A DNA stretch of 64,000 nucleotides from an uncultured archaeon (GTDB taxonomy: Archaea > Altiarchaeota > Altiarchaeia > IMC4 > CAZEGI01): NCBI GenBank assembly GCA_964512105.1, contig CAZEGI010000001.1, forward strand, positions 40,534 through 104,533, written 5' to 3'. The position numbers and the translations under genes are program-made. The notes under the pieces are model-generated. The model was not told the DNA's origin, ran no database searches, and worked only from the letters and a program-made list of their open reading frames with translations. Of the stretch, positions 3,150 through 28,220 are shown one piece after another. How positions within the stretch are numbered: the stretch's first letter is position 1; every line of letters begins with the position of its first letter.

Positions 3150-3205
3150 CCCGGTTAACCTGTTTTCTGTTACGTTTTAATTCCTTATTCTTAATTAATA
3201 CTGAA

Positions 3206-4159
3206 ATGCCGGAACGCGATAAGGATGTTTACCAGCAGTTTGCACAGATGTACGACGAAATCCACAAGCGGATTGTCGGTGAAGAGGAAACCATAAGGGA
3301 CATAATTATCGCGATATTCGGTGGCGGCCATGTGCTGATTGAGAGTGTTCCGGGCATGGGCAAAACGATGCTTGCCAAGACCATTTCCGAAACGTTAGAC
3401 TGCGACTTCAAGAGGATTCAGTGCACAGCGGACCTTAGGCCGACGGATATAATCGGCAAGATGGCTTTCGACGAGGCTAAGAAGAAATACGTTCTGTCCA
3501 AGGGACCGATATTCACGAACATCCTGCTGATTGACGAAATAAACCGCGCGCCGCCAAAGACACAGTCAGCGCTGCTTGAGGCGATGGCCGAGAAAAATGT
3601 CACCATCGGCGGTGAATCGTACAAAGTGACAGAGCCGTTTATCGTTCTTGCAACGGAAAACCCCGTGGAGCAGGAGGGGACCTTTCCGCTGCCCGAGGCG
3701 CAGAAGGACAGGTTTCTTTTCAAATCGGTTATAAAATACCTCCCCATGGAGGAAGAGATCGCCATTGTGAAGTCAAAGGCGAGGGAGGAGAAGATAAACA
3801 AGATTTTCAACCCGCCTGAGATTTTGATAATACGGGAGGAGATAGCAAAAACCGTCTCAATTTCGGATGCGATTCTGGAGTATGTGGTGAAGATCGTCGA
3901 TGCAACGCGCGAACGGAGGGAGGTCGCAACCGGCGCAAGCCCGAGGGCGTCGATTGCGTTCATGACCGCGACAAAGACCAAGGCGTTTCTTGAGGGAAGG
4001 AACCATGTAACCGCGAAGGACATAAAGGAGATGGCACTCCCGATTTTGAGGCACCGCCTGATATTGAACCCGGACTCGGCGGATTTCGGAGTTACACCGG
4101 ACGACGTTATAACGAAGGTGCTTGAGAGAATCGAAGCACCGGCGGAAAAAAATGTATAA
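3206..4159 (+). CDS. MoxR-family AAA+ ATPase
   Basis: Walker A is GHVLIESVPGMGKTMLAK and Walker B is LLIDEINRAPPKTQSALLEAMAE. The 317-aa length and overall order match MoxR/RavA-type chaperone ATPases. Confidence 0.85.
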   Translation: MPERDKDVYQQFAQMYDEIHKRIVGEEETIRDIIIAIFGGGHVLIESVPGMGKTMLAKTISETLDCDFKRIQCTADLRPTDIIGKMAFDEAKKKYVLSKGPIFTNILLIDEINRAPPKTQSALLEAMAEKNVTIGGESYKVTEPFIVLATENPVEQEGTFPLPEAQKDRFLFKSVIKYLPMEEEIAIVKSKAREEKINKIFNPPEILIIREEIAKTVSISDAILEYVVKIVDATRERREVATGASPRASIAFMTATKTKAFLEGRNHVTAKDIKEMALPILRHRLILNPDSADFGVTPDDVITKVLERIEAPAEKNV

Positions 4160-6191
4160 ACCGACTGTTGTTGCACTGGTGGTTTTGGTGCTGGTCTGGA
4201 GCTGCAGCGCGGAACTTCTTGAGGAGCGCATCAGTGAGGTGTGGAAGCAGACCATGACGGGCATCGGCACGTTTAATGTCGTAGACCTGGACGACGACGG
4301 CTCGAAGGAGATTTTGGTGGCGTTCAACGACAGTATTTTCGTTTTGAATTCTACGGGGAAGATTGCAAAAAGTTATTTGCTGGGCAACACTTCCGGCAGC
4401 ATATATGCGGTTGATGCGGCGGACATAAACGGCAACGGAAGAAAGGAACTTGTTGTCGGGGTCGGGGGAATGCGGGTGATTAATGAATACGGTTTGTACG
4501 GATTTGAAACTCCGGAAAACAAGAGCATAGTGTGGAAAACGAAGGTTCTGCACGAAACCCTTAACACGCGGGGTTCGATTGTTGTGCTGGATTTGAATGG
4601 AAGCGTGTTGTGGAGCGTTGAAACGAACGATAGCGTGAATGCCTTGGGTGTGTGCGACCTTGACGGCAATGTCCCTAAGGAGATTATCGGCGGTGTCGGG
4701 GATTACGCTGTTGATACGTATAATGAGTACAAAGGTACTGATGCCAACGGGACTGCGGTATGGGAGCTTGTTGATTACCCAAAGCAGGACGGCTGGGTTT
4801 ATGTTTTCAACAGCACCGGTGTTTTGAGGTGGGGTTATAAGTTGAAACTCGTATCCGAGGGTAAAGAGGTTGTTGATGCTGACAATAACGTTAAGCGCCT
4901 GCAACTCGTGGACGTAAATCAGGACGGAATTAATGAGATATTCGCGGGCTCGGACAATGGATGGATTTACCTGCTGAACCGCACGGGGAGCTTGGCATGG
5001 AGTTACGGTTTTGGCGGAGCTATAAAATCTATGTACGCGGGAGATATCAACCGTGATAACAAGAGCGAATTTGTTATCGGCTCTGGGGATAACTACATCA
5101 CTGCCCTTGACAGCGGCAGGAGATTGTTGTGGAGGTATCGCCTTGGGGATTTTCCATCTGCTGTATACGTTACGGATTTCAATCTTGACGAGAGTGAGGA
5201 CATATTAGTGGCATCATGGGACCGCTACATCTACTCGTTTGACAAAACAGGGGGCCTGCAGTGGAAATACTTCGTCGGGGAGCGAATTTATTCCATGTTC
5301 GTAGCGGATATAGACAACGATGGCTACGAAGAGATAATTACTGCATCGCCCAACAACCTTACGGTGTTCAAACTGAACGAGAACTACCTGACGAAACAAC
5401 AGGCGGACAGGTACTACAACAAATCTTTGGCATACTTTGAATCTGCGGATTACGGCATAGCCATAATATACGCGCAAAAGGCAAGGGATTTGTACACGCG
5501 CATAGAGGACGGCACGGGCGTATCCAAGGCAAAGAAGATAATCGATGATGTGGAGCGACAACTCAGATTAGATAGAAAACTGAGCGCCGACGAGAAGTAT
5601 ACAGCGGCTTTGAATTTCTACAGCAAGAGCGAGTACGATACCGCGGAGGTTTATGTAAACTCCGCCAAAAGCATATACAAGGAGATAAACGATGATGAGG
5701 GAGTAGGCAAGTGTGATAAACTGCTCGCAAGGATAGAAAACGAACGCACAGTAAAGCGCAGGATTGATGTTGATGCCGTCTATGCAAAAGCCATGCTCGC
5801 TCTGGACTTCAATAACTACACGGCAGCGAGGGACTATGCACTGGAAGCGAGGGAGGATTACAACAACCTCGGTGCAACAAACGATGCGGAAAAATGCGAC
5901 CTTATAATAAACAGGGTTGGCGAGGCGTATTACGAAACTTCACAGCGCTATTTCAATGAAGCCAATTACACGCGGTCGAGGGAATACTCGCAACTCGCGA
6001 AGGAAACGTTCATGCTCACCAGAAACACCGAGGGTGTAACAAAAGTGGAAATGCTTCTAACGCAGCTTGATGCCGCGGAGACGAGCGAGCAAGAACGGCT
6101 ACCTTCGGAACCGAGCACGCTTCCCTACGTGGTTTTTGCTGTTTTGATTGTCGCCTCTGTGGTGATTGTGGTAAGGAGCTTGAGAAAGTAA
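4152..6191 (+). CDS. Membrane-anchored 7-bladed PQQ/FG-GAP-like beta-propeller protein with four C-terminal Tyr/Ala-rich helical repeats and a C-terminal TM anchor
   Basis: ATG at 4152 overlaps the MoxR stop (ATGTATAA). There is a signal/anchor (MYKPTVVALVVLVLVWSCSA) and seven repeats of DxDxDG..E + G.L.W.Y (VDLDDDGSKEILVAF; VDVNQDGINEIFAGSDNGWIYLLNRTGSLAWSY; and others). Then come four ~50-aa repeats (YYNKSLAYFESADYGIAIIYAQKARDLY...) and a C-terminal TM segment, LPYVVFAVLIVASVVIVV. Confidence 0.6.
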   Translation: MYKPTVVALVVLVLVWSCSAELLEERISEVWKQTMTGIGTFNVVDLDDDGSKEILVAFNDSIFVLNSTGKIAKSYLLGNTSGSIYAVDAADINGNGRKELVVGVGGMRVINEYGLYGFETPENKSIVWKTKVLHETLNTRGSIVVLDLNGSVLWSVETNDSVNALGVCDLDGNVPKEIIGGVGDYAVDTYNEYKGTDANGTAVWELVDYPKQDGWVYVFNSTGVLRWGYKLKLVSEGKEVVDADNNVKRLQLVDVNQDGINEIFAGSDNGWIYLLNRTGSLAWSYGFGGAIKSMYAGDINRDNKSEFVIGSGDNYITALDSGRRLLWRYRLGDFPSAVYVTDFNLDESEDILVASWDRYIYSFDKTGGLQWKYFVGERIYSMFVADIDNDGYEEIITASPNNLTVFKLNENYLTKQQADRYYNKSLAYFESADYGIAIIYAQKARDLYTRIEDGTGVSKAKKIIDDVERQLRLDRKLSADEKYTAALNFYSKSEYDTAEVYVNSAKSIYKEINDDEGVGKCDKLLARIENERTVKRRIDVDAVYAKAMLALDFNNYTAARDYALEAREDYNNLGATNDAEKCDLIINRVGEAYYETSQRYFNEANYTRSREYSQLAKETFMLTRNTEGVTKVEMLLTQLDAAETSEQERLPSEPSTLPYVVFAVLIVASVVIVVRSLRK

Positions 6192-6196
6192 TTAAA

Positions 6197-8224
6197 ATGG
6201 AGAAGAGGGCTGGCGTTGTGGTTGTTTTTTTGTTAGTGTTGTTTCTGCTGCCGTTAATGCCTGCACAGCCGGTAAACCTGCAGATAGTTATAAACAACGA
6301 TGCAGAGTACACAAACTCTAGGGATGTTGTGTTAAAGGTGAGTGCAACGAACGCAGACAGTTGCCGCTATAAGAATGCAGGCGAGGACTGGAGTTCATGG
6401 GAAAAGTGGGTTTTTGTTCCGGGCGTTCCACAGACCAAGGGAAAAGATTGGATGCTGTCCGCAGGCGATGGCGCCAAGCAGGTTTATTTCCAGTGTAAGG
6501 ATGAAGATGAACAGTTATCGCAGGTGGTTTCGGACACGATAGTTCTTGATACAGCACCGCCAAGCGGACTGTCAATTTTGATAAACAACGGTGATGAATA
6601 CGCGACTGCGCAGGAGGTTACACTTACACTGTCCGCGAGCGGCGCAAGCGACTGCAGATACAAAAATGAGGACGAAGAATGGGGTTCGTGGGAAAACTAC
6701 GTGGCGGAGAGGTTGTGGAATTTGAGTGCAGGGGATGGTTTGAAGAGTGTTTCCTACCAGTGCAAGGACCTTGCGGAAAATTATGCGGAAACCTCAGACA
6801 CGATAACCCTTGATACGACGATGCCGATTATTGGAATTTTTTTGGTTGATAATGATGCAGATTACACAAACAGCGTAGGGGTAACGCTAAACGTAATTGC
6901 AAGTAATGTTACGGAATGTAGGTATAATGAAAACGAATGGACTGCATGGGAGGATTATGTTACAGAAAAGCCATGGGTGTTGTCGTCGGGTGACGGTTTA
7001 AAGACGGTTTACTGCCAGTGCAGAAATGTCGCGGGGGTGGAATCCGGAATTGTTAATGATTCCATAACCTTGGACAGCACCCCGCCGGAAAACCTTTCAA
7101 TAAGGATAAACCACAATGCGGACTACGCCACAAAAAAATCCGTTGTTCTGAATCTCAACGCAGAGAGCGCGAGCGAATGCCAGCAGAGGAATGAGAATGA
7201 TGCATGGACCGGGTTTGAGGCTTACGGAACGCGAAGGTTGTGGAACCTCAGCGACGGCAACGGTTTGAAAAACGTTTCATACCAATGCGTTGACCCTGCA
7301 GGAAACCCGTCGGTTGTCGTTTATGACCTTATACTTCTGGACAACAATGCGATTCCTCCCGCGCCCGTGATAACAGAACCTGTTAGTGGCGTGATACAGA
7401 ACACTCCGCCGTTAGAGATAAGCGTTGCAGGAACCGCGGAACCGGAAAGGGAAGTTTGGGTTTACGTTAATCTTGTTCTGGTAAACAAAACGGTTGCGGA
7501 TGAATACGGAATTTTTAGTTTGAACCTGACGCTGAACGAAGAAACGAACGTCATAACCGCAAAGGCGCTGAACTACAACGGCATGAGCGAAAGCTCGAAT
7601 GAGGTTGTTGTTTTTGTCACCCCGCAACAACCGACCACGAGGAACGTCTCGTTGTATTTCGGATGGAATTTCTTCACGCTTCCGATAGAGCCGATAGACA
7701 AGAGGCCGGGAATCGTGATGTCCGGACTGGAGTACGACCGCGTTGTAAGGTACAATCCCTCAAAGGAAAAATTCGAGCGATACACGGAAAAAATGCTGGA
7801 ATCCATGCAGACGCTGAAGGAGCTCAGGGCGGGTTATGCGTACTACGTGTTCGTAACAGATAGGGATTACAGGTATCCTGATGCAATAAACCTTGTTATT
7901 ACCGGACCGCTGCCGCAGTACCAGCTCCCGCCGAAAATAACGCTGGTGTACGGCTGGAACAGTTTTGGCATTCCGGAGGAAAGCTATCTTGCAAAGGACA
8001 TACGTTCCGCTCTTGAGAACGTCAGCACCGTGGGCGGCCAAGCCAAATACGCGGATCTTACAGGAAAGTACGAGAAGATTGCACGTTACTCGAAAGCGGA
8101 TGAGCGATTTGAAACCTATGACCCGAATCCTGGTGGTTTGCGAGAGTTCGACACGTTTGAGGTTGGCAAGGCCTATTGGATTTACTACAACGATACGGAA
8201 AGCATTACCATAAGGTTGAGATGA
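6197..8224 (+). CDS. Secreted adhesin-like protein: signal peptide, four tandem ~95-aa two-cysteine modules, Ig-like domain and C-terminal domain
   Basis: Signal peptide MEKRAGVVVVFLLVLFLLPLMPA. Four paralogous modules each carry ...NND.EY....V.L......S.CRYKNE...W..WE.......W.LSAGDGLK.V.YQCKD...... An Ig-like segment (VITEPVSGVIQNTPPLEISVAGTAEPEREVWVYVN...) follows. Confidence 0.55.
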   Translation: MEKRAGVVVVFLLVLFLLPLMPAQPVNLQIVINNDAEYTNSRDVVLKVSATNADSCRYKNAGEDWSSWEKWVFVPGVPQTKGKDWMLSAGDGAKQVYFQCKDEDEQLSQVVSDTIVLDTAPPSGLSILINNGDEYATAQEVTLTLSASGASDCRYKNEDEEWGSWENYVAERLWNLSAGDGLKSVSYQCKDLAENYAETSDTITLDTTMPIIGIFLVDNDADYTNSVGVTLNVIASNVTECRYNENEWTAWEDYVTEKPWVLSSGDGLKTVYCQCRNVAGVESGIVNDSITLDSTPPENLSIRINHNADYATKKSVVLNLNAESASECQQRNENDAWTGFEAYGTRRLWNLSDGNGLKNVSYQCVDPAGNPSVVVYDLILLDNNAIPPAPVITEPVSGVIQNTPPLEISVAGTAEPEREVWVYVNLVLVNKTVADEYGIFSLNLTLNEETNVITAKALNYNGMSESSNEVVVFVTPQQPTTRNVSLYFGWNFFTLPIEPIDKRPGIVMSGLEYDRVVRYNPSKEKFERYTEKMLESMQTLKELRAGYAYYVFVTDRDYRYPDAINLVITGPLPQYQLPPKITLVYGWNSFGIPEESYLAKDIRSALENVSTVGGQAKYADLTGKYEKIARYSKADERFETYDPNPGGLREFDTFEVGKAYWIYYNDTESITIRLR

Positions 8225-9174
8225 TGAGATTTGTAACAATAATAACAATAATGGTCATGATAACGGGCGTGAGCGCGCAGCCGCTGCCGGGAATAGAGGT
8301 CTGGGGACAGGTTGAGAACTATCAGGGTGCAGTGGATAACGCAATGGTTGTTGTAGTGGTTCCGAACACCGGTTACAGCAACACGACCTACACGAACGCG
8401 GACGGGTTTTACGATTTTTTAAGCGTTAATGCAAGTGTTGACGATGTCGTGATAGTAAACGCCACAAAGAACTTCCAGGTCGGTGGAAGTTCCGTGACTG
8501 TTGTGGAAGGTTCGAACCTTTACCGTGCGGATATCACACTTGTTCTGACAGTCATGCTCACCAACGTTGCGCTGGATGTCGGCAACGATACGGAAAAACC
8601 GTTTGAATTTTACGTCCCAGGGAATTTTACCGGAACCTTCATGACGGGGGACTTTTCCGACAGGGTCAACGAGATTTTGATGAAAAACTGCGAATGCGGC
8701 GGGTGTGCGATTGTAGGTGGTGATTGCATCATTCCCTTGAGATTGGGCTCGGATTCGCCTGGAAATTTAACAGTCAACGACCTTTATGTTCAGTACTCTG
8801 TGGGGAAAAGCATCAGGAACGTGAGTTACGGAAATGGCTTCAGATATTCGCGCGGGGGCTGCTGGGAAATCGAGTACGAAACTGTAAGTGGTAGAAAAAC
8901 GATGAACGTTTCGGTTCCGCCCGGACACGATTGCAGCAATCCCCTGAAGTACACGGGTGTGGAGCATGGATATCAGGAAACCGACGACGCGATAAATGAT
9001 GCGATGTATAGGTTGCTTAACGAAACAATGGATGCGGACGGAAACGGTGTTGTGGACAAGATAACTCAGGATGAGTATTTCAACCCGGAAAGCATGGTGT
9101 TCAACGCAGACGGCAGCATCGGAATAAAATCGCTCTGGGGGCCGTCGCTGTTTAAACTTATAGTGTGGATATGA
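8221..9174 (+). CDS. Secreted protein with a carboxypeptidase-regulatory-like (CarbopepD_reg) beta-sandwich domain
   Basis: Start at 8221 (MMRFVTIITIMVMITGVSAQP gives a Sec signal with AQP cleavage) overlaps the upstream stop. The segment VVVVPNTGYSNTTYTNADGFYDF...VVIVNATKNF matches the CarbopepD_reg pattern. The protein is Cys-rich (CECGGCAIVGGDC). Confidence 0.45.
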   Translation: MMRFVTIITIMVMITGVSAQPLPGIEVWGQVENYQGAVDNAMVVVVVPNTGYSNTTYTNADGFYDFLSVNASVDDVVIVNATKNFQVGGSSVTVVEGSNLYRADITLVLTVMLTNVALDVGNDTEKPFEFYVPGNFTGTFMTGDFSDRVNEILMKNCECGGCAIVGGDCIIPLRLGSDSPGNLTVNDLYVQYSVGKSIRNVSYGNGFRYSRGGCWEIEYETVSGRKTMNVSVPPGHDCSNPLKYTGVEHGYQETDDAINDAMYRLLNETMDADGNGVVDKITQDEYFNPESMVFNADGSIGIKSLWGPSLFKLIVWI

Positions 9175-10235
9175 TGGACAACAAGGGATACATTTACACG
9201 CTGATAACGATAACGCTCGCACTGATGCTTTTGAGTCTGGCGCTTTTTTACTTCGAGTCCACAGGAACGAAGGTCGAGGACATATCAACCAAGCTCAGAA
9301 CCGATGAGTTGTATTACTTCGTTGAATCGATGGGATACGATTTGGACAGAAGCGTTCACATAACCGCGCAACGGGCAGCAACCTATGCGATAGATGAGGT
9401 GATAGAAACCGGTAGGGGTTTAGGAGATTACGACATGGAAGGTAGAAACTGCACGGCGTTCGTGTATGGTCTGAACGGCTCGCAGGCTGCGATAGCAGAA
9501 CTCATGCTGTGCGGGACCCTCTACGGCGTCGGCACGGATTCTGCGGAGTACATGCAGAACCACACGCTTCTGGACTGGATTGGGAAAATGGAGAAAGCCG
9601 GCGATGAGCTGAATTTCGATGTTGATATCGAAGTGAAAGGGATAAACCTGTATGCTTACGACATCGGTAACTTTGCGGTTTTGACAATGCTCGATGTAGG
9701 GGTGAAAGACCGTCTGGGAATCAGCGGATACGAGCAGCGTAACATGCCGGTGCTGTCTTTAATTCCGACGAGGGGAATGGAAGATCCGCTCTACCTGCTG
9801 AAAACCAGGGAGCCGGCACTGATTCCGAGGTTTGTTCCGTGCAATGAAAGTGCGGTGGTGGATGCACGCGTTGTGGATTCGTGGATAGACACGCAGTGCT
9901 ATCGTGCCGTGGATTCCGCATACAACGCACCATCGTTCTTTGACAGGATTGATGGCAACCTTTACCTCTCAGAAAAATATCTCGAGCAGAGTTTGTGGTT
10001 GAAAGGTTCACTTGGTTCGGGAGGGAAACTTATTGGTATCGAGAATTTTTTGAATCCCGAAAGGATGAGCAGGTACGGAATTCCGGTTAACGTGAACAAC
10101 ACGTGGGTTGATTATCTGTACTGGCAAAACGTTTCGGGGGAATGTACGGTAAATGGCACGGCACACGCCTACTTCAGGATAGACCAAGGGCACGGTTTGC
10201 TGTACAACATCACGAATCTTAGCTGCAGTATATAA
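9165..10235 (+). CDS. Large pilin-like protein (class-III-signal-like N-terminus; candidate minor pilin/pseudopilin)
   Basis: The N-terminus MDMMDNKG|YIYTLITITLALMLLSLALFYFE is a short charged segment followed by K-G and a ~22-aa hydrophobic helix, which is the prepilin-like architecture. The start overlaps the upstream gene by 10 nt. Confidence 0.4.
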   Translation: MDMMDNKGYIYTLITITLALMLLSLALFYFESTGTKVEDISTKLRTDELYYFVESMGYDLDRSVHITAQRAATYAIDEVIETGRGLGDYDMEGRNCTAFVYGLNGSQAAIAELMLCGTLYGVGTDSAEYMQNHTLLDWIGKMEKAGDELNFDVDIEVKGINLYAYDIGNFAVLTMLDVGVKDRLGISGYEQRNMPVLSLIPTRGMEDPLYLLKTREPALIPRFVPCNESAVVDARVVDSWIDTQCYRAVDSAYNAPSFFDRIDGNLYLSEKYLEQSLWLKGSLGSGGKLIGIENFLNPERMSRYGIPVNVNNTWVDYLYWQNVSGECTVNGTAHAYFRIDQGHGLLYNITNLSCSI

Positions 10236-10255
10236 ATTGTTATTCCTATCTTTTT

Positions 10256-12001
10256 ATGATGGCAGAGAAACCCGACAAACTGAAAGAGAAACTTCTGGAA
10301 CTGCTTCAGATTAGTGGAAAAAGCGGTTTGGATGATGTTGGTAAAAAACTGAAGGTTGACAAGAAACTGCTGCTTCCGGTGGTCGAGGAACTTGCGAGGG
10401 AAGGACGCATCCGGGTCGAGACCCGAATTCTGAAGGACCCGGAGATAGAACTGATTAAAACAGCAGCCGAGAGAAAACCGGATGAAATAAAGGTAGCAAA
10501 GAAGGTTGAGGGGAAGGTTGTTGAATCCTACGACATAGTTGCTGACGACGTTAAACTTCCCGTGAAAATTCTAGAGGTCGGGGATTACGTAAGGCACTAC
10601 GATGTCGCGTTGCCGCATATAGATTTGTCAACGCGTGCGATTCTCGACGAAACCAAGCGCATGCTGGTTGGCGATATCCAGATTGAAACCCGCGAGGCGA
10701 TAGATTCCGAAACCTTCCAGAGGTTGAGGGAAAGATTCGTGATACACTCGAAGGAACGGCTGAAGGATGTTTTAAAGGAGAGGTCCGAAGAGGACATCGG
10801 GCTTTTGTCGAGGGTTTTGGTAAACGAAATGTTGGGTTTGGGTGACCTTGAATACCTACTGCTTGACACGAACCTTGAGGAAGTAACTGTCAACAACAGC
10901 CGGGAACCGGTGTGGGTTTACCACAAAAAACACGGCTGGCTGAAAACGGAGATGATTATTCCGACCGAGGACATGATCAGGAATTATTCCTCGAGAATTG
11001 CGAGGGAAGTCGGCAGGGAGATAACGCACCTCGAGCCGCTGCTGGACGCCCACCTTCTTACGGGAGACAGGTTTAACGCCACGCTGTTCCCGGTATCCAC
11101 GCAGGGCAACACCATAACCATAAGGCGGTTCTCGAGGGTGCCATGGACGATTGTAAACCTCATGTCTGATGAACTTAAAACAGTAAATTCGAGCGTTGCG
11201 GCGTTCCTCTGGCTTGCGGTTGAATATGAGCTAAGTATGCTGGTCACCGGCGGAACCGCTGCTGGAAAAACAACAGTCCTCAATGCAATGATGCCGTTCA
11301 TGCCAGCCAACCAGAGGATAATAACGATGGAGGACACCCGTGAATTGAACCTGCCGGATTACCTGCAGTGGATTTCTCTGGTGAGCAGGCCTCCGAACCC
11401 GCAGGGTGAAGGCGAGGTGTCAATGCTGGATTTGGCAAAAAACGCTTTGAGAATGCGCCCGGACCGCGTTATAATCGGCGAGGTCAGAAGGAGGGAAGAA
11501 ACCGAAGTTTTATTCGAGGCCATGCACACCGGACATTCGGTTTATGGAACCTTCCATGCGGACCGCGCAGCCGAGGTCGTGGAAAGAATCACGAGCCCGC
11601 CGATGAATATTCCGGGCATTGTTCTTGGCTCCCTGCATCTGATCGTAACAACGTATCGCAACAGAAGGACAGGAACGAGAAGAATCTTCGAGATAGCGGA
11701 ACTGTTGAGGACGGAAACCGGAAAGCCGAACCTGAACGTACTTTACATATGGGACCCGAAAACCGACACCACGAAGCCGATGTACCCGAGCATGCGGGTA
11801 AAGGAGGAAATCGAAACGTTCACGGGCATGAGCGAAAAGGAAATCAAGGATAATCTGGACGACAAGCGGATGGTGCTTGAGGTGTTGCTGAAGCAGGGCA
11901 TTTTCGATGTTAACAACGTCGGAAGGATTATAAGCCGCTATTACATGGAACCGGATAAGGTAATCGAAGCCGCAAAACGCGGTAAATCTCTAAAGGAGTA
12001 A
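10256..12001 (+). CDS. Type IV pilus / archaellum-type secretion ATPase (VirB11/PilB/TadA/FlaI family)
   Basis: Walker A is LVTGGTAAGKTTVLNAMM. The Asp box/Walker B region is IITMEDTRELNLP and the His box is RPDRVIIGEVRRREE...EAMHTGHSVYGTFHA. Length is 581 aa. Confidence 0.85.
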   Translation: MMAEKPDKLKEKLLELLQISGKSGLDDVGKKLKVDKKLLLPVVEELAREGRIRVETRILKDPEIELIKTAAERKPDEIKVAKKVEGKVVESYDIVADDVKLPVKILEVGDYVRHYDVALPHIDLSTRAILDETKRMLVGDIQIETREAIDSETFQRLRERFVIHSKERLKDVLKERSEEDIGLLSRVLVNEMLGLGDLEYLLLDTNLEEVTVNNSREPVWVYHKKHGWLKTEMIIPTEDMIRNYSSRIAREVGREITHLEPLLDAHLLTGDRFNATLFPVSTQGNTITIRRFSRVPWTIVNLMSDELKTVNSSVAAFLWLAVEYELSMLVTGGTAAGKTTVLNAMMPFMPANQRIITMEDTRELNLPDYLQWISLVSRPPNPQGEGEVSMLDLAKNALRMRPDRVIIGEVRRREETEVLFEAMHTGHSVYGTFHADRAAEVVERITSPPMNIPGIVLGSLHLIVTTYRNRRTGTRRIFEIAELLRTETGKPNLNVLYIWDPKTDTTKPMYPSMRVKEEIETFTGMSEKEIKDNLDDKRMVLEVLLKQGIFDVNNVGRIISRYYMEPDKVIEAAKRGKSLKE

Positions 12002-12002
12002 G

Positions 12003-12872
12003 ATGGTATCCATCCTGGAATCGGAGCTTGTGGAAACTGCATCGAAACCTTTCAGGAGTACTGCCGAAAGGCTTACGGTTTTGTTCCCGAGTCTGGAATG
12101 GGACCTGAAAAAAGCGGGTTACATAATAGACACGATACAGTTTCTGTCCGTAGTTCTGTATCTCACGACGTTGGTTTTTGTAACTTCCGTGCTTTTTACA
12201 ACGCTCCCCATAATCATGCTTGAGGGCTTTACGAGAACGCTCTACTTTCTTGTGATTTTCTGCGCCGGAGTGAGTGCGCTTACCTTTTTCTACCTGATTA
12301 TCACGCCGCACGCAAGGATGCAGCGGCGTGCGAGACTTATCGACAAGGACCTCGAGTACATGTTGAAGGATATCGAGATACAACTGAGCGCCGGGATACC
12401 GTTGTTCGACACGTTTGTCAACGTGTCCAGGGGGCAGTACGGTGAATGCTCCGCAATAGCCAATGGCATAGTCCAGGAGGTTGAATCCGGTAAGTCCATA
12501 ACGGATGTGCTGAACGATGTCGGAATGTGGTCGCCCTCGGAGTATCTAAGGGGGGTTTTGTGGCAGATTGTGAACGCTGTAAAAACCGGCTCAAACGTGT
12601 CTGAAGTTTTGGGTGCATTGTCGGAGGACATAAGGATAGATAAAAAAAGCAGGATTGAGTCGTACGGGCACGAACTGAATCTCTGGGGTCTGATATACAT
12701 GATGGGTGCGATTATAATGCCGTCGATGGGCGTCACGCTTATGATAATACTGTCAACGTTCCTCGGAGCCAAGATAATAAATGAAAGGCTGCTGTGGATT
12801 ATACTTCTCGCCCTGATGATATTTCAGACCCTGCTGATAACGTTCATAAAAGGCAGGAGGCCGGAGGTTTAG
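12003..12872 (+). CDS. T2SSF-domain polytopic membrane protein (TadB-like half of a split FlaJ/PilC platform)
   Basis: It starts 1 nt after the ATPase stop. It has several TM helices plus a cytoplasmic T2SSF-like segment (DIEIQLSAGIPLFDTFVNVS...GKSITDVL). Together with the next gene it equals a split FlaJ/TadBC. Confidence 0.65.
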   Translation: MVSILESELVETASKPFRSTAERLTVLFPSLEWDLKKAGYIIDTIQFLSVVLYLTTLVFVTSVLFTTLPIIMLEGFTRTLYFLVIFCAGVSALTFFYLIITPHARMQRRARLIDKDLEYMLKDIEIQLSAGIPLFDTFVNVSRGQYGECSAIANGIVQEVESGKSITDVLNDVGMWSPSEYLRGVLWQIVNAVKTGSNVSEVLGALSEDIRIDKKSRIESYGHELNLWGLIYMMGAIIMPSMGVTLMIILSTFLGAKIINERLLWIILLALMIFQTLLITFIKGRRPEV

Positions 12873-12873
12873 A

Positions 12874-14016
12874 ATGACCGATGGAAAAGATTTCAGAGGT
12901 GTGTTAAGAGGCGCACTCGGACCTGTGCTATGGCTTCTGGGGATCATACTCTGGGGCATAAACGCGATTATACTGTTTATCATAATTTCGCTGAAGGCGG
13001 TAATCGACATATTCAAGAGCGTTGTGGTTGTGTTGCCATCGAAACTCGAGAGAATCGTTCCGAGCCCCCTTCAGGGCAGACTGAACCAGCTTCTGGTTTA
13101 CGCCGGAATAAAACGAACGTCAAGCGATGTTATCAGCATAACGCTGATTTACAGTCTGGTATTGAGCATCATGACCTACCTCATCCTCTACATTCTGAAG
13201 GTTTCTATACCTATTTTGTTGATGAGCACGGTGGTTGTATTCATATTTGTGTGGCTGGTAATGTACGCCACCGTGAATTTTCTTATGGAGAAGCGGGCGG
13301 AGATTATAGAGGAGGTTCTGCCCGACATCCTCGACATGATTTCCCAGAACATGATAGCGGGAATGACCACGTACAACGCGCTGTGGTCGGCTGCAAGACC
13401 CGAATTCGGGCCTCTCGCAGTTGAGATACAGACGGTTGCACGAGCTACCCTGGCCGGAACTCCGTTAACAGACGCGCTCATAGGAATGACCAACCGCATA
13501 AAATCAATGCGTCTGGAGAGAAGCGTAAAACTGATTATTCAAGGAATACAGTCCGGCGGTGAACTCCCAAACGTTCTGAAAGGAATATCAGCAGACATGC
13601 GCGCGGAGCACAACCTGAGAAAGGAAATCCGTGCGGAAACCAATATCAACACGATATTCATCCTGTTCTCGATTCTGGTTGGCGCGCCCGTGCTGTTTGC
13701 CGTGTCGTTACAGTTCATAACGATATTTTCCACGCTTTTCTCGAGAATAAACGTATCGGAATTGACAAACATATCCCGGCACACGATGATAACGCTGAGG
13801 GAGCTTTCGATATCGCCTGAATTCTTTATGCAATACGCCATGGCAATACTCATTGTTCTCAGTTTCTACGGCGCGCTTCTCATCGGCCTGGTACGAACGG
13901 GGAAGATTATAACAGGAATACGGAATATACCGATACTGATAATCGTATCCACGGGTGTGTTTTTCTTGGTAAATTATCTGCTTGAGATATTCTTGAGCGG
14001 ATTGATGAGGTTGTAG
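12874..14016 (+). CDS. T2SSF-domain polytopic membrane protein (TadC-like second half of the platform protein)
   Basis: It starts 1 nt after the previous stop. It has TM helices and the cytoplasmic segment EEVLPDILDMISQNMIAGMTTYNALWSAARPEFGPLAVEIQTVARATLAGTPLTDAL, which is typical of GspF/TadC repeats. Confidence 0.65.
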   Translation: MTDGKDFRGVLRGALGPVLWLLGIILWGINAIILFIIISLKAVIDIFKSVVVVLPSKLERIVPSPLQGRLNQLLVYAGIKRTSSDVISITLIYSLVLSIMTYLILYILKVSIPILLMSTVVVFIFVWLVMYATVNFLMEKRAEIIEEVLPDILDMISQNMIAGMTTYNALWSAARPEFGPLAVEIQTVARATLAGTPLTDALIGMTNRIKSMRLERSVKLIIQGIQSGGELPNVLKGISADMRAEHNLRKEIRAETNINTIFILFSILVGAPVLFAVSLQFITIFSTLFSRINVSELTNISRHTMITLRELSISPEFFMQYAMAILIVLSFYGALLIGLVRTGKIITGIRNIPILIIVSTGVFFLVNYLLEIFLSGLMRL

Positions 14017-14078
14017 GATTTAAATACAGAGCAGGAATGTATTATATTCTCGCATCAATTTAGTTAATTCAACGTAAA

Positions 14079-15182
14079 ATGCCGGTGGAAAACAACGGAG
14101 AAAAAACCCCGTATGGTGTGAACAACCAACATCAGGACAGAAAGAAGGCCATCTGCGTTACGCTGACCCAACCAGACAATCCGGTGAGGGTCGAGTGCAA
14201 CACAACGGACGAGATTCTCAGTTTAATCCAGGATGCCAAGATTGCCTGGGTTGACTTCATGGTCTCGGACATTGAGGGTGAGGGTGAAGCGATTGCAACA
14301 CGATTGGGTTTTGGGCCAAACCTTGTTTCGGTCCTGATTAAGGGTTATTACTCGAGCTACGAGGATCGCGATACTGAACTTGGGCTGGTGGTGCCGAATG
14401 TCAGTGTTGAAAAACTCGAGGTTACGGTAACCCCGTTGCTGATACTGATGAGAAAGGGTTTGATTGTAACACTGCACAAGGGTACATCGCGACGTCTTTT
14501 AAAGTTTTCGCGTTATGCAAACACCTTCATGCGCAAGATGCCGCCTGAAACGACGTGGCAGGACGCACTGACCATTGTTCTGACGAGAATTCTGGACGAA
14601 AACAACAGCAGGAACTTCGACCACCTGAGGGAGATAGAGGAACAGGCGGATGAACTCAGCAGGGACCTCATGGACCCGAGAACGCCAAGAACCAAGATCG
14701 GGCCTGAGATATACAACATGAAGCATGCCCTCATAACCTACATGAACGCGCTCTGGGCGACGCTTGACGTGCTGGATTCATTACGATACGGCGATGCCGA
14801 ACTGCTAACGGACAACGCAAAGTTGTTGAGGAGGATAGGCATCCTTGCCGATGATGTCAACAGGCAGCTTTCCCTGAGCGAACACATGAGCGAAGTGCTT
14901 GCTTCAGGACTCGAGGTTTTGCAGACGATTTACAACAACCAGCTCCAGATGCTGAACAACCGTTTGTCTTTGGTGGTAACGTGGCTCACTATTGTTGGCA
15001 CAGCGATACTTATACCAAACACGCTCGCAACGATATATGGAATTCCTGCAATTTCTGAACATATCGATTGGCATTTCACAATCTGGACTATTCTGCTGAC
15101 ATCCATTCTTTCGGCTATTGTAACGTTCTATTACTTCAAATGGAGGGGTAAGATTCCAACATCATCGGAGCATTACGATTGA
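14079..15182 (+). CDS. CorA-family divalent cation channel homolog with an atypical pore motif (Y-G-I-P instead of Y-G-M-N)
   Basis: A ~300-aa soluble N-domain is followed by two C-terminal TM helices (LSLVVTWLTIVGTAILIPNTLATIYGIPAI ... FTIWTILLTSILSAIVTFYYFKW). This aligns with CorA (IFIPLTFIAGIYGMNF) except that GMN becomes GIP. Confidence 0.6.
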   Translation: MPVENNGEKTPYGVNNQHQDRKKAICVTLTQPDNPVRVECNTTDEILSLIQDAKIAWVDFMVSDIEGEGEAIATRLGFGPNLVSVLIKGYYSSYEDRDTELGLVVPNVSVEKLEVTVTPLLILMRKGLIVTLHKGTSRRLLKFSRYANTFMRKMPPETTWQDALTIVLTRILDENNSRNFDHLREIEEQADELSRDLMDPRTPRTKIGPEIYNMKHALITYMNALWATLDVLDSLRYGDAELLTDNAKLLRRIGILADDVNRQLSLSEHMSEVLASGLEVLQTIYNNQLQMLNNRLSLVVTWLTIVGTAILIPNTLATIYGIPAISEHIDWHFTIWTILLTSILSAIVTFYYFKWRGKIPTSSEHYD

Positions 15183-15920
15183 TTATAGATACTCCGCATG
15201 TTTCATTATAACGTTTCCTAAATTTTTAACCTCTCTTTCGCTTAGTCCTGTGCCTTCGGTGTTGTTCTTTATGAACTCCACCAGCTTGTTTGGAGAAACA
15301 ATGCTAACTGTCGGATTTTTTATTTTCAGCACTACTGCGGGGTTTGTGAACACCAGTATACCCTCGACCCATATATGGGGTGTTTTTTTGAATATCTCCC
15401 TTTGATGCCTTAGTATGAAGTCCTTCAGCACCTTTGCGTTTCGCTTAACCTGGTTGCTCGGATTGCCTATCTCGAGCGGGTATGGTTTGCCACGCCTGCC
15501 AATCTTTCTCCTGCCCCAGACATCGCCGTTGCAACTGACCTCCCCGGAATAGTTTTTTGTTTCAACCACAAATATCCCGTTTCTGCCCAGCACGATGTGG
15601 TCAACATCACCGCGGTTCGGCGGGATTACAACGCCGCTGATCAGACAGTAGGTGTCGTCAAGTTTTTTCAGTTCGTTTATAACGATTTTTTCCCCTTCCG
15701 AGCCGCTGCCCCAGATGAGATGCTTTCGGTAGGTGTATATTCCAAGACCATAGGCTATGGGAATCAGAATCAAACCGACTGAAGCGTAAGGTACAATGTC
15801 CATGATGAAAAGTAAAAAACCCAGCAAAATCAACGTCACAAAAATCAGCAGCCTGCTCCTGTTGAGCTGTATGTTCCGCCAGACATAAAGCGTTTCCGTA
15901 TGCTTTTTCAGTAGTATCAT
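15183..15920 (-). CDS. NERD (nuclease-related domain) protein with two N-terminal TM helices
   Basis: GDVDHIVLGRNGIFVVETKNYSGEV matches the NERD core. The N-terminus is hydrophobic (LLIFVTLILLGFLLFIM; LILIPIAYGLGIY). Confidence 0.7.
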   Translation of the reverse strand: MILLKKHTETLYVWRNIQLNRSRLLIFVTLILLGFLLFIMDIVPYASVGLILIPIAYGLGIYTYRKHLIWGSGSEGEKIVINELKKLDDTYCLISGVVIPPNRGDVDHIVLGRNGIFVVETKNYSGEVSCNGDVWGRRKIGRRGKPYPLEIGNPSNQVKRNAKVLKDFILRHQREIFKKTPHIWVEGILVFTNPAVVLKIKNPTVSIVSPNKLVEFIKNNTEGTGLSEREVKNLGNVIMKHAEYL

Positions 15921-15924
15921 TTGG

Positions 15925-15991
15925 AGTTACATTTATATAGGGGTCGAAAGTAATATTTTCCTACTATATATAAAAAGAGAGGTGAAAAAAC
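15925..15991 (+). promoter_or_regulatory. Candidate archaeal promoter (TATA-like TTTATATA / CTATATATAAAAA) and Shine-Dalgarno GAGGTGA upstream of pilin gene 1
   Basis: ...catTTATATAggggtcgaaagtaatattttcctaCTATATATAAAAAgaGAGGTGAaaaaacATG. Two TATA-like boxes are present, and GGAGGTGA-like RBS lies 7 nt before the ATG at 15992. Confidence 0.5.
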
Positions 15992-16483
15992 ATGATTGGA
16001 AGAAGAGGTCAGGGTGCCATGGAGTACCTCATGACCTATGGATGGGCAATCCTGGTGGTTATGATCGTCGGGATTGTCATGTGGCAGTTGGGTATTTTTT
16101 CTATGGGAACCACAACCGTCACAGCGACGGGCTTTAGCAAGATAAAGCCACAGCTCGCCGGAACGGGTGTTTCGGGCAGCACAGGTAAGTTTACGGGGGT
16201 ATTTATGAATGGCGCAGGTTCTGCAGTAAGCGTAAAGAGTGTTACCCTTGAAGGAAAGACTGGTAATTTGGACTGTTCCGCTGCGATTGTTGCATTACCA
16301 TCGGCTCCCGTAGCTGCGGGCGATAACTTCGAGCTGTCAACAACGGCACCGACACACTGTACCGAAACGGGTAATGCCGGCGATGTCTACCAGTTGTTAG
16401 TGACGATAAACTACAACATAAGCATAGGCGGACTGACTACAGACCACTCGGACAGCGGCATAATAAGGGGGCCACTTGAATAA
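15992..16483 (+). CDS. Archaeal type IV pilin (class III signal peptide, QxSxEY motif), paralog 1
   Basis: The N-terminus MIGRRGQGAMEYLMTYGWAILVVMIVGIVMWQLGIF fits the PF04021-like class III signal (Q-x-[SA]-x-E-x3-T, then a hydrophobic helix). The C-terminus GGLTTDHSDSGIIRGPLE is shared with the two downstream paralogs. Confidence 0.8.
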   Translation: MIGRRGQGAMEYLMTYGWAILVVMIVGIVMWQLGIFSMGTTTVTATGFSKIKPQLAGTGVSGSTGKFTGVFMNGAGSAVSVKSVTLEGKTGNLDCSAAIVALPSAPVAAGDNFELSTTAPTHCTETGNAGDVYQLLVTINYNISIGGLTTDHSDSGIIRGPLE

Positions 16484-16545
16484 ACCCTTACTTTTTCTTT
16501 TTTTATTTTTTATTTGTTTTTATTTCCCCTGTTTTATATTTTATT

Positions 16546-17046
16546 ATGAAGTCCAGAAAAGCCCAGTCCGCACTGGAGTATATAACAACGTATGGTTGGG
16601 CCGTGCTCGTTGTACTTATCCTTGGAATTGCGCTGTGGCAGCTCGGAATTTTTCAGACAAGCCCTGCCACGAGTTTTTCCGGTTTTGGCGCTTTAAAGCC
16701 GCAGCTTAGCGGGACGGAATTAAAGCTTTCGGGCAGCACTGCAAACTTTACAGGGATGTTCATAAACGGTTTTGGTGACCGTGTAATCGTTACGGACGTG
16801 AACATCACGGAAAAGTATGGCGGTTGTGCTGCCGACATTACGGTTAACGACAACTTCATAGGACCAAACGGTGTAGTTATCGGGAGGGGGAATTTTTTTG
16901 TTGTGAAGGGAACGGGTATAGATACGGCGGCTGCGTCTGTTGGTGATATCTACGAACTTACGGTGCGGTTTGACTACAACATTTTGGTGGGAGGCACAAA
17001 AACCAATCACTCAGTTTCGGGAGTTATACGTGGTCCTTATGTCTAA
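16546..17046 (+). CDS. Archaeal type IV pilin, paralog 2
   Basis: MKSRKAQSALEYITTYGWAVLVVLILGIALWQLGIF, with the conserved C-terminal ...TNHSVSGVIRGPYV. Confidence 0.8.
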   Translation: MKSRKAQSALEYITTYGWAVLVVLILGIALWQLGIFQTSPATSFSGFGALKPQLSGTELKLSGSTANFTGMFINGFGDRVIVTDVNITEKYGGCAADITVNDNFIGPNGVVIGRGNFFVVKGTGIDTAAASVGDIYELTVRFDYNILVGGTKTNHSVSGVIRGPYV

Positions 17047-17527
17047 GCCGAAAAAATCCCAGGCTGCTGTAGAGTACGTGATGACCTATGGTTGGGCCAT
17101 TCTCGTCATCCTGATAGTCGGGGTGATGATGTGGCAGCTCGGCATTTTCAAGATTGGAGGTCAGACCGCGCCGGGCAGTAGGGGATTTTCACAGATAAGG
17201 CCTCTTGATTGGTCGCTCAAAAAAATAAGCGCAACCGACGGAACCCTTGACATGATAGTGGTGAACGATGCGGGAGTCATACTGCAACTGCCAGCAAACA
17301 GCGTATTCGCGGCCGTTGACCTAGTGAACTGCAGCACGGGGCCAGCAACAGCATACACGAAATTCCGACCGGGTCAGACGATACCCGTAACACTAACGTG
17401 CCAGAATCTTCCTGCAGAATATCAAACAGGGGAGTATTACAGGGCAACCGTTGTAATCAATTACATAAACCCGGCATCGGGTCTTAACCACTCGAGCGTC
17501 GGGATAGTTTTTGGAGGCGTTGAGTAA
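17039..17527 (+). CDS. Archaeal type IV pilin, paralog 3
   Basis: MSKPKKSQAAVEYVMTYGWAILVILIVGVMMWQLGIF. The ATG at 17039 overlaps the stop of paralog 2 (ATGTCTAA). Confidence 0.75.
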   Translation: MSKPKKSQAAVEYVMTYGWAILVILIVGVMMWQLGIFKIGGQTAPGSRGFSQIRPLDWSLKKISATDGTLDMIVVNDAGVILQLPANSVFAAVDLVNCSTGPATAYTKFRPGQTIPVTLTCQNLPAEYQTGEYYRATVVINYINPASGLNHSSVGIVFGGVE

Positions 17528-17621
17528 TAGCAAAACACATTAATTTATGAACTTTTTACATGCGTTTTGATAGCTAGCAAATTGCAATTATAGTTCAAAT
17601 ATTTTTGCAATTTGCTATAAT
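17528..17621. repeat. 95-bp palindromic intergenic element, copy A, the inverted partner of 28127-28220. It has internal 12-bp inverted repeats AGCAAATTGCAA/TTGCAATTTGCT and TIR-like ends
   Basis: The reverse complement of 17528-17621 matches 28127-28220 with a 62-nt perfect core (AATTGCAATTTGCTAGCTATCAAAACGCATGTAAAAAGTTCATAAATTAATGTGTTTTGCTA) plus a 14-nt block. It fills the convergent hisS/pilin intergenic space. Confidence 0.85.
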
Positions 17622-18871
17622 CAGGAAAGTTTTTCAATTAGATTTGCAATCTTCACTTCTTCTTGTTTCTTTTTCCGCATATTTTTAACAACAACGGAGT
17701 TGTTTTTTAATTCTTTTTCGCCGACAATAACCACAAACTCTGCATTAATCCTGTCTGCATACTCGAGAATCTTATCCAGTTTTCTGTCAATCAGGTTCAA
17801 ATCAACCTTCACGTTACCGGGGTTTTTTCTTAGGTTTGCAGCAATACGCCATGCCTGTTCCGTTGTGTTGCCTATCTGCGCTATAACAACTGCCCTTTCC
17901 TTTTTTTCGAGTTTCTTTTTTTGAATTTCGCACGCCTCGACAACCCTGTCGAACCCGAATGCAAACCCAACTGCTGGCGTATCCGGGCCTCCAAAAAGTT
18001 TTACGAGATTGTCGTAACGGCCGCCTCCGCATATCTGGTTTTCCGCACCCAGACCATCAACACGCAACTCGAAAATCATTCCGGTGTAGTATTCCAAGCC
18101 GCGCGCCCTTCCGAGGTTTATGGTGTATTTTGTTTTCAGCATGTCCAGCCAGCCGGCAATCTCCATGAGGCGGTTGAGTTGCTCTGCGGATTTGTTGCTG
18201 TTTCTGAGCAGGGCTGCTGCCTCTCTGAGTTTTTCGCTGCCGCCCTTCATCCCGATGATTTTATAAAAAACCCCGCTGTCCACGAATTTTTTCAAAATTT
18301 CGGTATCGCCCTTGTCTATGCTTGCTATAACAGAGTCATGCTTTTCCTTCGGAACTCTAAAGTCATCAAGCATGCTTCTCAGCAGCCCGATACTTCCGAT
18401 TTCAAGTTCGAACTCCAAACCCAGCGCATTCAGGGAATCAACAGCGACCCGTATGACCTCGGCATCAGCCAAACTATTGTCTGCTCCGATAAGCTCTATT
18501 CCTAACTGCCAGAACTCGCGGTAGCGACCCTTCTGCGGTCTTTCGTATCGAAACATCGGGCAGGAATAGTAAACCTTCAATGGTTTTTGCATGCTTATGA
18601 GTTCGCTCGCGTACATCCTGCACACGGAAGCAGTCATCTCGGGTCTTAAGCAAAGTTCCCTGTCCGATTTGTCCCTGAAAACGTACATGTGCTCCTTGAT
18701 TTCCTCTCCGGATTTGAGTCTGAACAACTCTGCAGGTTCAAACGTCGGGGTCAGAATCTTTCGGTAGTTGTACGCTTTGAACACTCCAGCGATTGCGACC
18801 TCGACAAAATCCCTTTTGCCCATTTCCTCCGGGTTGAAATCCCTGGTTCCGCGGGGTTTCTCGACTTTCAT
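17621..18871 (-). CDS. hisS: Histidyl-tRNA synthetase
   Basis: MKVEKPRGTRDFNPEEMGKR...FRYERPQKGRYREFWQLGIELIG...GGGRYDNLVKLFGG gives class II aaRS motifs 1-3 and the HisRS-specific blocks. Confidence 0.9.
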   Translation of the reverse strand: MKVEKPRGTRDFNPEEMGKRDFVEVAIAGVFKAYNYRKILTPTFEPAELFRLKSGEEIKEHMYVFRDKSDRELCLRPEMTASVCRMYASELISMQKPLKVYYSCPMFRYERPQKGRYREFWQLGIELIGADNSLADAEVIRVAVDSLNALGLEFELEIGSIGLLRSMLDDFRVPKEKHDSVIASIDKGDTEILKKFVDSGVFYKIIGMKGGSEKLREAAALLRNSNKSAEQLNRLMEIAGWLDMLKTKYTINLGRARGLEYYTGMIFELRVDGLGAENQICGGGRYDNLVKLFGGPDTPAVGFAFGFDRVVEACEIQKKKLEKKERAVVIAQIGNTTEQAWRIAANLRKNPGNVKVDLNLIDRKLDKILEYADRINAEFVVIVGEKELKNNSVVVKNMRKKKQEEVKIANLIEKLS

Positions 18872-18912
18872 CCTTATTATTTTTATTTAGGGAACTAAAA
18901 ACAATTTTTTAT

Positions 18913-28106: not shown

Positions 28107-28126
28107 CTTAATTATCTTCCCTAAGA

Positions 28127-28220
28127 TAATAGCAAATTGCAAATATTGAAATTTAATTGCAATTTGCTAGCTATCAAAACGCATGTAAAAAGTTCATAAA
28201 TTAATGTGTTTTGCTATAAT
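28127..28220. repeat. 95-bp palindromic intergenic element, copy B, the inverted partner of 17528-17621
   Basis: See copy A. It sits in the divergent promoter space between 28106(-) and 28226(+) and ends ...TTTTGCTATAATataacATG. Confidence 0.85.

Follow-up and report, generated by a model that had tools for sequence, protein, structure and literature searches.

A 64,000-nucleotide stretch of the Altiarchaeota contig CAZEGI010000001.1 (positions 40,534 to 104,533; here called the window, meaning the whole of the DNA that was analyzed) carries two adjoining gene modules. Module A (597 to 6191) comprises a scaffold protein that we call G0, a MoxR-type AAA+ ATPase, and a propeller protein, G2. 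Module B (8218 to 17527) comprises the secreted protein G4, the large pilin-like protein G5, a pilus assembly ATPase, two half-size platform proteins, a NERD-domain protein, and three Q+1/E+5 pilins. We read the pair as a MoxR system without a VWA protein next to a type IV pilus operon, with a proposed action of G0 and MoxR on the cell envelope or the pilus, and consider the case for this reading about evenly balanced. The arrangement is a conserved neighborhood of an Altiarchaeota type, in which a functional coupling between MoxR and the pilus is putative and unproven. Genes were called from a map of open reading frames (ORFs) and Pfam scans that covered 46 ORFs of the window, with the following results.

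597 to 3149, plus strand: G0, a scaffold of TPR/SNAP repeats and beta-sandwich domains, 850 amino acids (aa) (Pfam)
3206 to 4159, plus strand: MoxR-type AAA+ ATPase (Pfam AAA_3, 1.5e-59; AAA_lid_2, 8.7e-20)
4152 to 6191, plus strand: G2, an anchored FG-GAP propeller (Pfam FG-GAP_3, 4.9e-19)
6197 to 8224, plus strand: G3, a secreted four-module protein, 675 aa (module alignment)
8218/8221 to 9174, plus strand: G4, a secreted protein with a weakly CarboxypepD_reg-like N terminus (Pfam, alignments)
9165/9171 to 10235, plus strand: G5, a large pilin-like protein, 354/356 aa (N-terminal motif, AlphaFold2 model)
10256 to 12001, plus strand: type IV pilus assembly ATPase (Pfam T2SSE, 1.9e-34)
12003 to 12872, plus strand: first half of a TadB/TadC-like platform protein, one T2SSF domain (Pfam, 1.8e-13)
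12874 to 14016, plus strand: second half of the platform protein, one T2SSF domain (Pfam, 3.4e-13)
14079 to 15182, plus strand: CorA-type Mg2+ transporter (Pfam CorA, 1.7e-32)
15183 to 15920, minus strand: membrane-tethered NERD-domain protein (Pfam NERD, 2.3e-23)
15992 to 16483, plus strand: pilin 1, RRG/QGAMEY (motif, hydrophobic helix; the slash marks the motif's division here and below)
16546 to 17046, plus strand: pilin 2, RKA/QSALEY (motif, hydrophobic helix)
17042 to 17527, plus strand: pilin 3, KKS/QAAVEY (motif, hydrophobic helix)

All window proteins were compared with 97 fetched loci (numbered with the prefix L) by tblastn, and the gene tables of these loci were consulted. One order recurs: an antisense ArgRS gene; a G0-like gene, MoxR, and the propeller, followed in places by a small protein with two transmembrane (TM) segments; an antisense Sm_multidrug_ex gene; then G4-like, G5-like, T2SSE, and two T2SSF genes, an antisense NERD gene, and a pilin. 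The full order with ArgRS upstream was found in L091, L092, L094, and L095, with the pilin before the NERD gene in L092. L010 has the order without the antisense membrane gene, on a contig that cuts the upstream end, and in L004 the order runs to the end of the contig. The lineages are deeply diverged, with identities of 48 to 56% for ArgRS, 26 to 31% for G0, 27 to 31% for the propeller, 66 to 69% for MoxR, 33 to 45% for G5, and 55 to 61% for the pilus ATPase. A neighbor-joining tree built from the pilus ATPase places the MoxR-linked loci as the basal grade of the Altiarchaeota clade. Downstream of the pilins no conserved order was found, and a HisRS homolog was not found in L010. The first-pass annotation of this DNA had named scattering of these genes in relatives as the outcome that would undo a functional link. 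The answer is divided, as the MoxR-propeller-pilus order recurs in six lineages and the genes are scattered in a derived clade. We also considered L004 as an example of a MoxR module without a pilus and rejected it, since tblastn identified its genes for 1418-aa and 516-aa proteins as homologs of G4 and G5, and its contig ends before the ATPase.

The links within this neighborhood differ in constancy. G0 is near MoxR in eight of nine contexts and is its direct neighbor in six; among the relatives, G0 homologs adjoin MoxR directly in L004, L092, L094, L095, and L097, and one gene (KaiC-like or NUDIX) lies between the two in L010 and L091. In L097, G0 keeps with MoxR although the pilus is elsewhere. 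MoxR adjoins the propeller tightly in seven contexts. The G0-MoxR link is thus the most constant and the MoxR-propeller link comes next, whereas the pilus is linked only at the level of the region, and this link can be broken. Two further observations concern the neighbors of these genes. The small protein found directly after the propeller in L091 (13091 to 13585), L092 (13412 to 13993), and L094 (13291 to 13839) has two TM segments and a winged-helix-like tail. In L093, an Altiarchaeales lineage, the 2 kb free of ORFs upstream of MoxR (7693 to 9761) contain a gene for a tRNA and, on the minus strand, the 3' end of one for 16S rRNA, and no G0.

The MoxR protein of the window has an intact P-loop (PGMGKT, read from the translation) and a Walker B motif (ILLIDE, found by pattern search), and its best solved relative is 2R44 (9.1e-77). 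Its homologs fall into more than 100 clusters at 57 to 73% identity, and all the named ones are from Altiarchaeota. A metagenome-contig scan anchored on MoxR returned only three loci, all irrelevant. G0, which lies outside the region described in the first-pass annotation and was missed there, is the probable partner of MoxR and the best candidate for that role. Residues 1 to about 600 of G0 form TPR/SNAP-like repeats (Pfam SNAP, 1.5e-31; TPR_12, 1e-29), and its C terminus has two beta-sandwich domains resembling BatD, CARDB, and NPCBM_assoc (Pfam TRAP_beta and NPCBM_assoc). Neither a TM segment nor a signal peptide was found in G0. Its homologs in relatives are longer (924 to 1736 aa), match BatD (1.2e-8 in L010 and 7.5e-11 in L092) as well as CARDB and NPCBM_assoc, and end in degenerate KaiC-like domains (DUF7504 and DUF835, the latter of which we take to be KaiC-like) or, in L010, have a separate KaiC-like ATPase encoded after them.

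No VWA or DUF58 domain was detected by Pfam in the 46 scanned ORFs of the window or in the module A proteins of L004, L010, L091, and L092, and none appears in the Pfam lists of L094, L095, and L097. A VWA or DUF58 domain hidden in G0 or its longer homologs was considered and ruled out by Pfam. Compared with MoxR-VWA systems (MRP/Bat), the locus has the AAA_3 domain with its lid and the TPR/BatD-like accessories, and it has no adjacent VWA/DUF58 gene.

The propeller protein G2 begins with a signal or TM segment and ends in a TM helix that is followed only by the residues RSLRK. It contains six strict DxDxDGxxE calcium-loop motifs. Its AlphaFold2 model (predicted local distance difference test score, 84) consists of 31 strands, nine helices, and the TM helix, in that order; the nine helices form a helical-repeat stalk at residues 410 to 647. 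Foldseek searches returned only generic 8/9-blade propellers and propellers of the ITFG2/BBS type. The model and the terminal segments point to G2 as an extracellular, membrane-anchored surface protein. With about five residues in the cytoplasm, a G2 so placed could not, once folded, be contacted by a cytoplasmic MoxR, and the earlier suggestion that MoxR acts on the cytoplasmic face of the propeller loses its ground. The translational coupling of the two genes that was proposed at the same time is borne out by an overlap of 8 nucleotides (nt) between the MoxR stop and the G2 start (ATGTATAA).

Most of the array is equally compact. G2 and G3 are separated by 5 nt, G3 and G4 overlap at ATGATGA, G4 and G5 overlap at ATGA, and gaps of 1 nt separate the pilus ATPase from TadB and TadB from TadC. 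The gap of 20 nt between G5 and the pilus ATPase is the sole exception to a range of -8 to +5 nt, so that the first-pass description of overlapping or 1- to 5-nt junctions is right for the junctions it quoted and wrong for this one. The same description counted ten plus-strand genes between 3206 and 14016. Their order and coordinates stand, as do the domain assignments of the named genes in the Pfam and ORF scans, but the genes number eight, and an unbroken run of ten on the plus strand requires G0 (597 to 3149) and CorA (14079 to 15182) to be counted in. The CorA gene (plus strand) and the NERD gene (minus strand) separate the platform genes from the three pilins.

The co-directional layout depends on G3. 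This protein has four modules of about 90 aa with two Cys residues each (by alignment), a C-terminal region, and an Ig-like domain with a weak Pfam match (Glucodextran_B-like, 2.4e-5), and no G3 homolog was found by tblastn in the 97 related loci. G3 occupies the position of the antisense Sm_multidrug_ex gene of the relatives, and neither a homolog of that gene nor one of the small two-TM protein is present in the window. G3 is an adhesin-like protein specific to the window lineage that replaces the antisense gene and joins modules A and B in one co-directional array.

G4 and G5 form a conserved pair. The CarboxypepD_reg match of G4 is weak (5.7e-5; 23.8 bits, under the 32.3-bit cutoff), and the N-terminal 115 or so residues of G4 differ between lineages. 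Its C-terminal 200 or so residues are a conserved Cys-containing domain that ends in LWGPxxxKLIVW and is always encoded directly before G5. In L004 the same domain belongs to a Disaggr_repeat protein of 1418 aa, and in L098 to a Thr/Ser-rich protein of 586 aa. One C-terminal domain with such different N-terminal parts would suit an adaptor whose binding heads can be exchanged. G5 has a class III-like N terminus (NKG/YIYT; family motif, K-G-Y-x-Y-T) followed by a long hydrophobic helix, and a metagenome gene call places its start at the ATG at 9171. The AlphaFold2 model of G5 is pilin-like, with an N-terminal helix of 76 residues followed by a globular alpha/beta domain of a fold without close relatives. 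We considered a VWA identity for this globular domain and rejected it, since the fold is not VWA. A sequence search of the PDB with G5 and pilin 1 gave no matches. Named members of the G5 family come only from Altiarchaeota, and Pfam has no model for the G4 or G5 family, both of which are Altiarchaeota specific.

The remaining pilus components are of a familiar kind. In comparisons with the PDB, the pilus ATPase matched Archaeoglobus GspE (2OAP, 1.6e-73), FlaI (1.2e-52), and CpaF (2.9e-47), in that order. It has a Walker B-like motif and belongs to the VirB11/FlaI/CpaF family, and its match to the NCBIfam FlaI model (270 bits) is under the 550-bit cutoff. Its N-terminal extension of about 88 aa, which has a winged-helix-like look, recurs in the ATPases of the MoxR-linked relatives, and in the L094 ortholog this extension has a weak MarR_2 match. 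The nearest named homologs (55 to 65% identity) are almost all from Altiarchaeota, followed by DPANN archaea. Together with the nearest homologs of MoxR and G5 and the shared synteny, they are the basis for assigning this metagenomic DNA to Altiarchaeota. The platform halves have four (12003 to 12872) and six (12874 to 14016) TM-like segments. A core of G5 (in part of the loci), ATPase, TadB, TadC, and pilin is kept across Altiarchaeota and DPANN archaea.

The three pilins, which are paralogs, were identified by the motif [G/A/S]/Q-x-x-x-E, the hydrophobic helix, and the conserved position after TadC in relatives; homologs directly follow TadC in DPANN and Altiarchaeota loci. Their match to the Pfam Class_IIIsignal model has an E value of only 0.11. 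Pilin 1 is preceded by an AT-rich region of its own with a GAGGTGA ribosome-binding site and is, from these sequence features, probably the major pilin. The stop of pilin 2 is overlapped by the start of pilin 3, and these two genes are probably cotranscribed. A T-rich run (TTTTTCTTTTTTTATTTTTTATTTGTTTTTATTT) with the look of an archaeal terminator lies after pilin 1, at 16484 to 16545; if it acts as one, pilin 1 would be monocistronic. No prepilin peptidase (PibD/EppA, peptidase A24) was found in the 46 scanned ORFs; the gene commonly lies apart from the pilus locus, and the genome may have one outside the window.

Two other genes lie within the pilus region. The NERD protein has one scored N-terminal TM segment and a second that was read from the sequence. 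Homologs with 48 to 60% identity occupy the same place in L010, L011, L013, L015, L091, L092, L094, L095, and L098, antisense after the second platform gene, with other genes intervening in L092 and L098. CorA is absent from this position in all related loci and is a lineage-specific insertion that is probably not part of the system. At the corresponding spot, L098 has a methyltransferase gene and a gene for a 1128-aa protein, which indicates that the junction between platform and NERD genes tolerates insertions.

In the mechanism that we propose, the pilus would be an adhesive filament, and G4 and G5 would form a minor-pilin or adaptor complex that shows variable binding modules. G0 would take the place of the usual VWA adaptor and recruit MoxR in the cytoplasm, where MoxR could drive ATP-dependent assembly or remodeling of an envelope complex. 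Its likely target would be the pilus motor or platform, or alternatively the propeller before export, with MoxR keeping the precursor export competent. The propeller itself would be a fixed binding or anchoring partner at the cell surface without direct contact with MoxR. The best argument for an action of G0 and MoxR on the pilus machinery comes from the KaiC-like parts of the G0 homologs, as KaiC-family ATPases repeatedly accompany archaeal pilus loci as partners in the cytoplasm, and from the link of a vWA/GvpN-type MoxR pair to such loci in thaumarchaea (PMC4858521). A more ambitious version, in which a VWA-independent MoxR uses a giant cytoplasmic scaffold of TPR and Ig-like parts (with a KaiC-like domain in relatives) to couple ATP hydrolysis to the assembly or anchoring of both the pilus and an integrin-like propeller, seems to us unlikely.

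Several observations weigh against a functional tie between the modules. In L004, L091, L092, L094, and L095, the propeller and G4 genes are parted by the antisense membrane gene, which implies separate transcription units there. The earlier view of the array as one transcription unit does not hold beyond the window lineage, to which the single-array layout is specific. Upstream of the modules, the collinearity also takes in housekeeping genes (for a flavoprotein, NadA, Hjc, and ArgRS), so the adjacency of MoxR and pilus may be inherited rather than selected. Pilus loci of the derived clade have no MoxR within about 10 kb upstream (L012, L014, L015, L016, and L022). L097 and L014 come from one assembly, with the G0-MoxR pair and the G5-ATPase pair on different contigs; in L097, housekeeping genes fill the 9 kb or so that separate G0 and MoxR from a downstream pair of aIF5A and propeller genes (12603 to 14241). 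In L093, MoxR stands alone, with genes for a tRNA and for 16S rRNA beside it. Furthermore, MoxR is cytoplasmic and the propeller extracellular, and the G0 of the window has no KaiC-like domain of its own.

In the strongest alternative, the collinearity is inherited and nothing more, and module A is a general MoxR system for envelope or stress tolerance, similar to the Bat operon of Bacteroides, which happens to adjoin the pilus operon in a chromosomal region of Altiarchaeota that rearranges slowly and has no functional tie to the pilus. The unrelated genes upstream (NadA, Hjc, and ArgRS), the antisense gene that parts the modules in five relatives, and the separation of the modules in the derived clade all agree with it, as do the BatD-like and TPR domains, which typically accompany MoxR in Bat-type operons. 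Three points speak against inherited collinearity alone. The order is kept at about 50% ArgRS identity despite insertions and deletions inside the cluster (G3, CorA, KaiC, and NUDIX). The KaiC-like domains of the G0 homologs are of a kind that is associated with the motors of archaeal pili and archaella (PMC4858521). In L015, where the pilus operon is inverted, an aIF5A-propeller pair (17125 to 19612) again lies about 1.5 kb from a pilin gene, in a different arrangement. In the derived clade (L097 and L015), the propeller homologs always adjoin an aIF5A gene. This pattern suggests that an ancestral cluster was broken there by an inversion and by some 9 kb of inserted housekeeping genes. Taking both sides together, we give inherited collinearity an appreciable chance that stays clearly short of even.

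The remaining explanations fit less well. The first-pass annotation envisaged a single operon for one dedicated adhesion or host attachment apparatus, with MoxR acting directly on the propeller. The tight co-directional array, the MoxR-propeller overlap, and the several secreted proteins with repeat or Ig-like modules are in keeping with such an apparatus. On the other hand, the propeller exposes only some five residues to the cytoplasm, and the single array is unique to the window lineage; nothing points to a host, and host attachment is pure conjecture. We consider this explanation improbable. Equally improbable in our estimate is a pilus that serves DNA uptake or exchange together with the NERD (nuclease-related) protein instead of adhesion, an idea that is compatible with the preferred reading of module A. 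It draws on the kept position of the NERD gene in or beside the pilus module of at least nine related loci, but the NERD domain appears from its sequence to face the cytoplasm, no other DNA translocation component is present, and G4 with its variable heads is adhesin-like. The NERD gene could hint at DNA handling or be a conserved passenger. Finally, we attach very little probability to module A being a conflict (defense) system of the bpMoxR type, which is suggested by a secondary Pfam match of MoxR to bpMoxR (2.5e-9, 37 bits), as this match is far below that to AAA_3 (200 bits), no vWA protein is encoded, the propeller is of the secreted FG-GAP type and not of the cytoplasmic WD40 type, PADLOC gave only weak generic matches, and the locus is stable and chromosomal, with syntenic flanks and no island-like distribution seen.

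The other genes of the window are housekeeping genes, including those for methenyl-H4MPT cyclohydrolase, RtcB, PolB, and HisRS, and an Rfam scan of the window detected no RNA family. A second AAA+ protein (44668 to 46110, plus strand; 480 aa) has a Mg_chelatase-like N terminus and a later Sigma54_activat-like part with an insert between them; it is directly followed by a gene for a B12-binding radical SAM protein (46144 to 47451), and no VWA protein is encoded nearby. A 930-aa protein (32119 to 34911, plus strand) combines two Cdc48-like AAA domains with some 320 N-terminal residues that match no family. Two ORFs on the minus strand among the housekeeping genes (22477 to 23004, 175 aa; 27279 to 28142, 287 aa) match no Pfam family.

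All component families of the two modules are known, and the pilus machinery is of a standard archaeal type. Three features appear to be undescribed in the literature that was searched: a MoxR without VWA that consistently has a TPR/BatD-like scaffold as its companion and is coupled to a surface propeller of the FG-GAP type, the recurrent place of this MoxR module beside a pilus operon in one grade of Altiarchaeota, and the G4 and G5 families. MoxR ATPases are widespread, few of their substrates have been identified, and almost every model of their action uses a VWA adaptor. A stable combination of MoxR with a TPR/BatD-like scaffold and without VWA offers a well-delimited system in which an alternative adaptor can be tested. 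If the functional link is true, it would bring an AAA+ chaperone into the biogenesis of archaeal type IV pili, and the VWA-independent MoxR of the more ambitious version would, if real, be a new class of assembly chaperone for pili or the envelope; if the link is only positional, nothing more than an ordinary pilus operon lies next to an ordinary MoxR gene. The Altiarchaeota, which are uncultivated, are known to have unusual structures on their surface, and to our knowledge their pili are undescribed. G4 and G5, with a conserved adaptor domain, swappable heads, and a large pilin-like protein, are candidates for diversifying what these pili bind.

Among known systems, the Bat-type MoxR systems of Bacteroides resemble module A in their AAA_3 plus AAA_lid_2 ATPase, which is near 2R44, and in neighboring TPR/BatD-like domains. 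Unlike in the Bat type, no VWA/DUF58 protein is encoded in the window or in eight related loci, the TPR and BatD-like parts are fused in one cytoplasmic protein without TM segments, and MoxR has a surface propeller of the FG-GAP type translationally coupled to it. Bacterial pilus adhesins of the PilY1 type are likewise calcium-binding beta-propellers encoded with pilus genes. In contrast to them, G2 has a C-terminal TM anchor and no pilin-like or VWA part, and so it cannot ride the pilus tip. MoxR-vWA-beta-propeller ternary conflict systems (bpMoxR) have been described (PMC7159879). Adjoining MoxR and beta-propeller genes and a weak bpMoxR match are shared with these systems; the vWA protein, an effector, and support from PADLOC are not, and the propeller is of a secreted FG-GAP type.

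The organization found here had been thought undescribed for an archaeal pilus. A MoxR-type ATPase at such loci does have a precedent, though one with other partners: a pair of vWA protein and GvpN-like MoxR ATPase is linked to thaumarchaeal type IV pilus loci of subclade 4A and has been proposed to regulate or modulate the pilus (PMC4858521). The likeness lies in a MoxR-superfamily ATPase beside an archaeal pilus locus. The differences are that the MoxR of the window scores only 35.8 bits with the GvpN model TIGR02640 (cutoff, 266.8 bits), that no vWA protein is present, and that phylum and pilus clade are others. The pilus itself can be compared with the Epd-type clade 1 archaeal pili of Makarova, Koonin, and Albers (2016; PMC4858521). 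In contrast to these, no EppA or other prepilin peptidase, DUF2341 adhesin, or FleN/MinD ATPase was found in the locus, G4 and G5 are specific to Altiarchaeota, and the nearest solved relative of the ATPase is the GspE of Archaeoglobus (2OAP). Shared with clade 1 are the VirB11/FlaI-family ATPase, two separate T2SSF genes, Q(+1) pilins, additional pilin-like or adhesin-like secreted proteins in the locus, and KaiC-like proteins in relatives. A pilus of clade 1 (Epd type) would agree with the presence of two TadC genes and of Q(+1) pilins.

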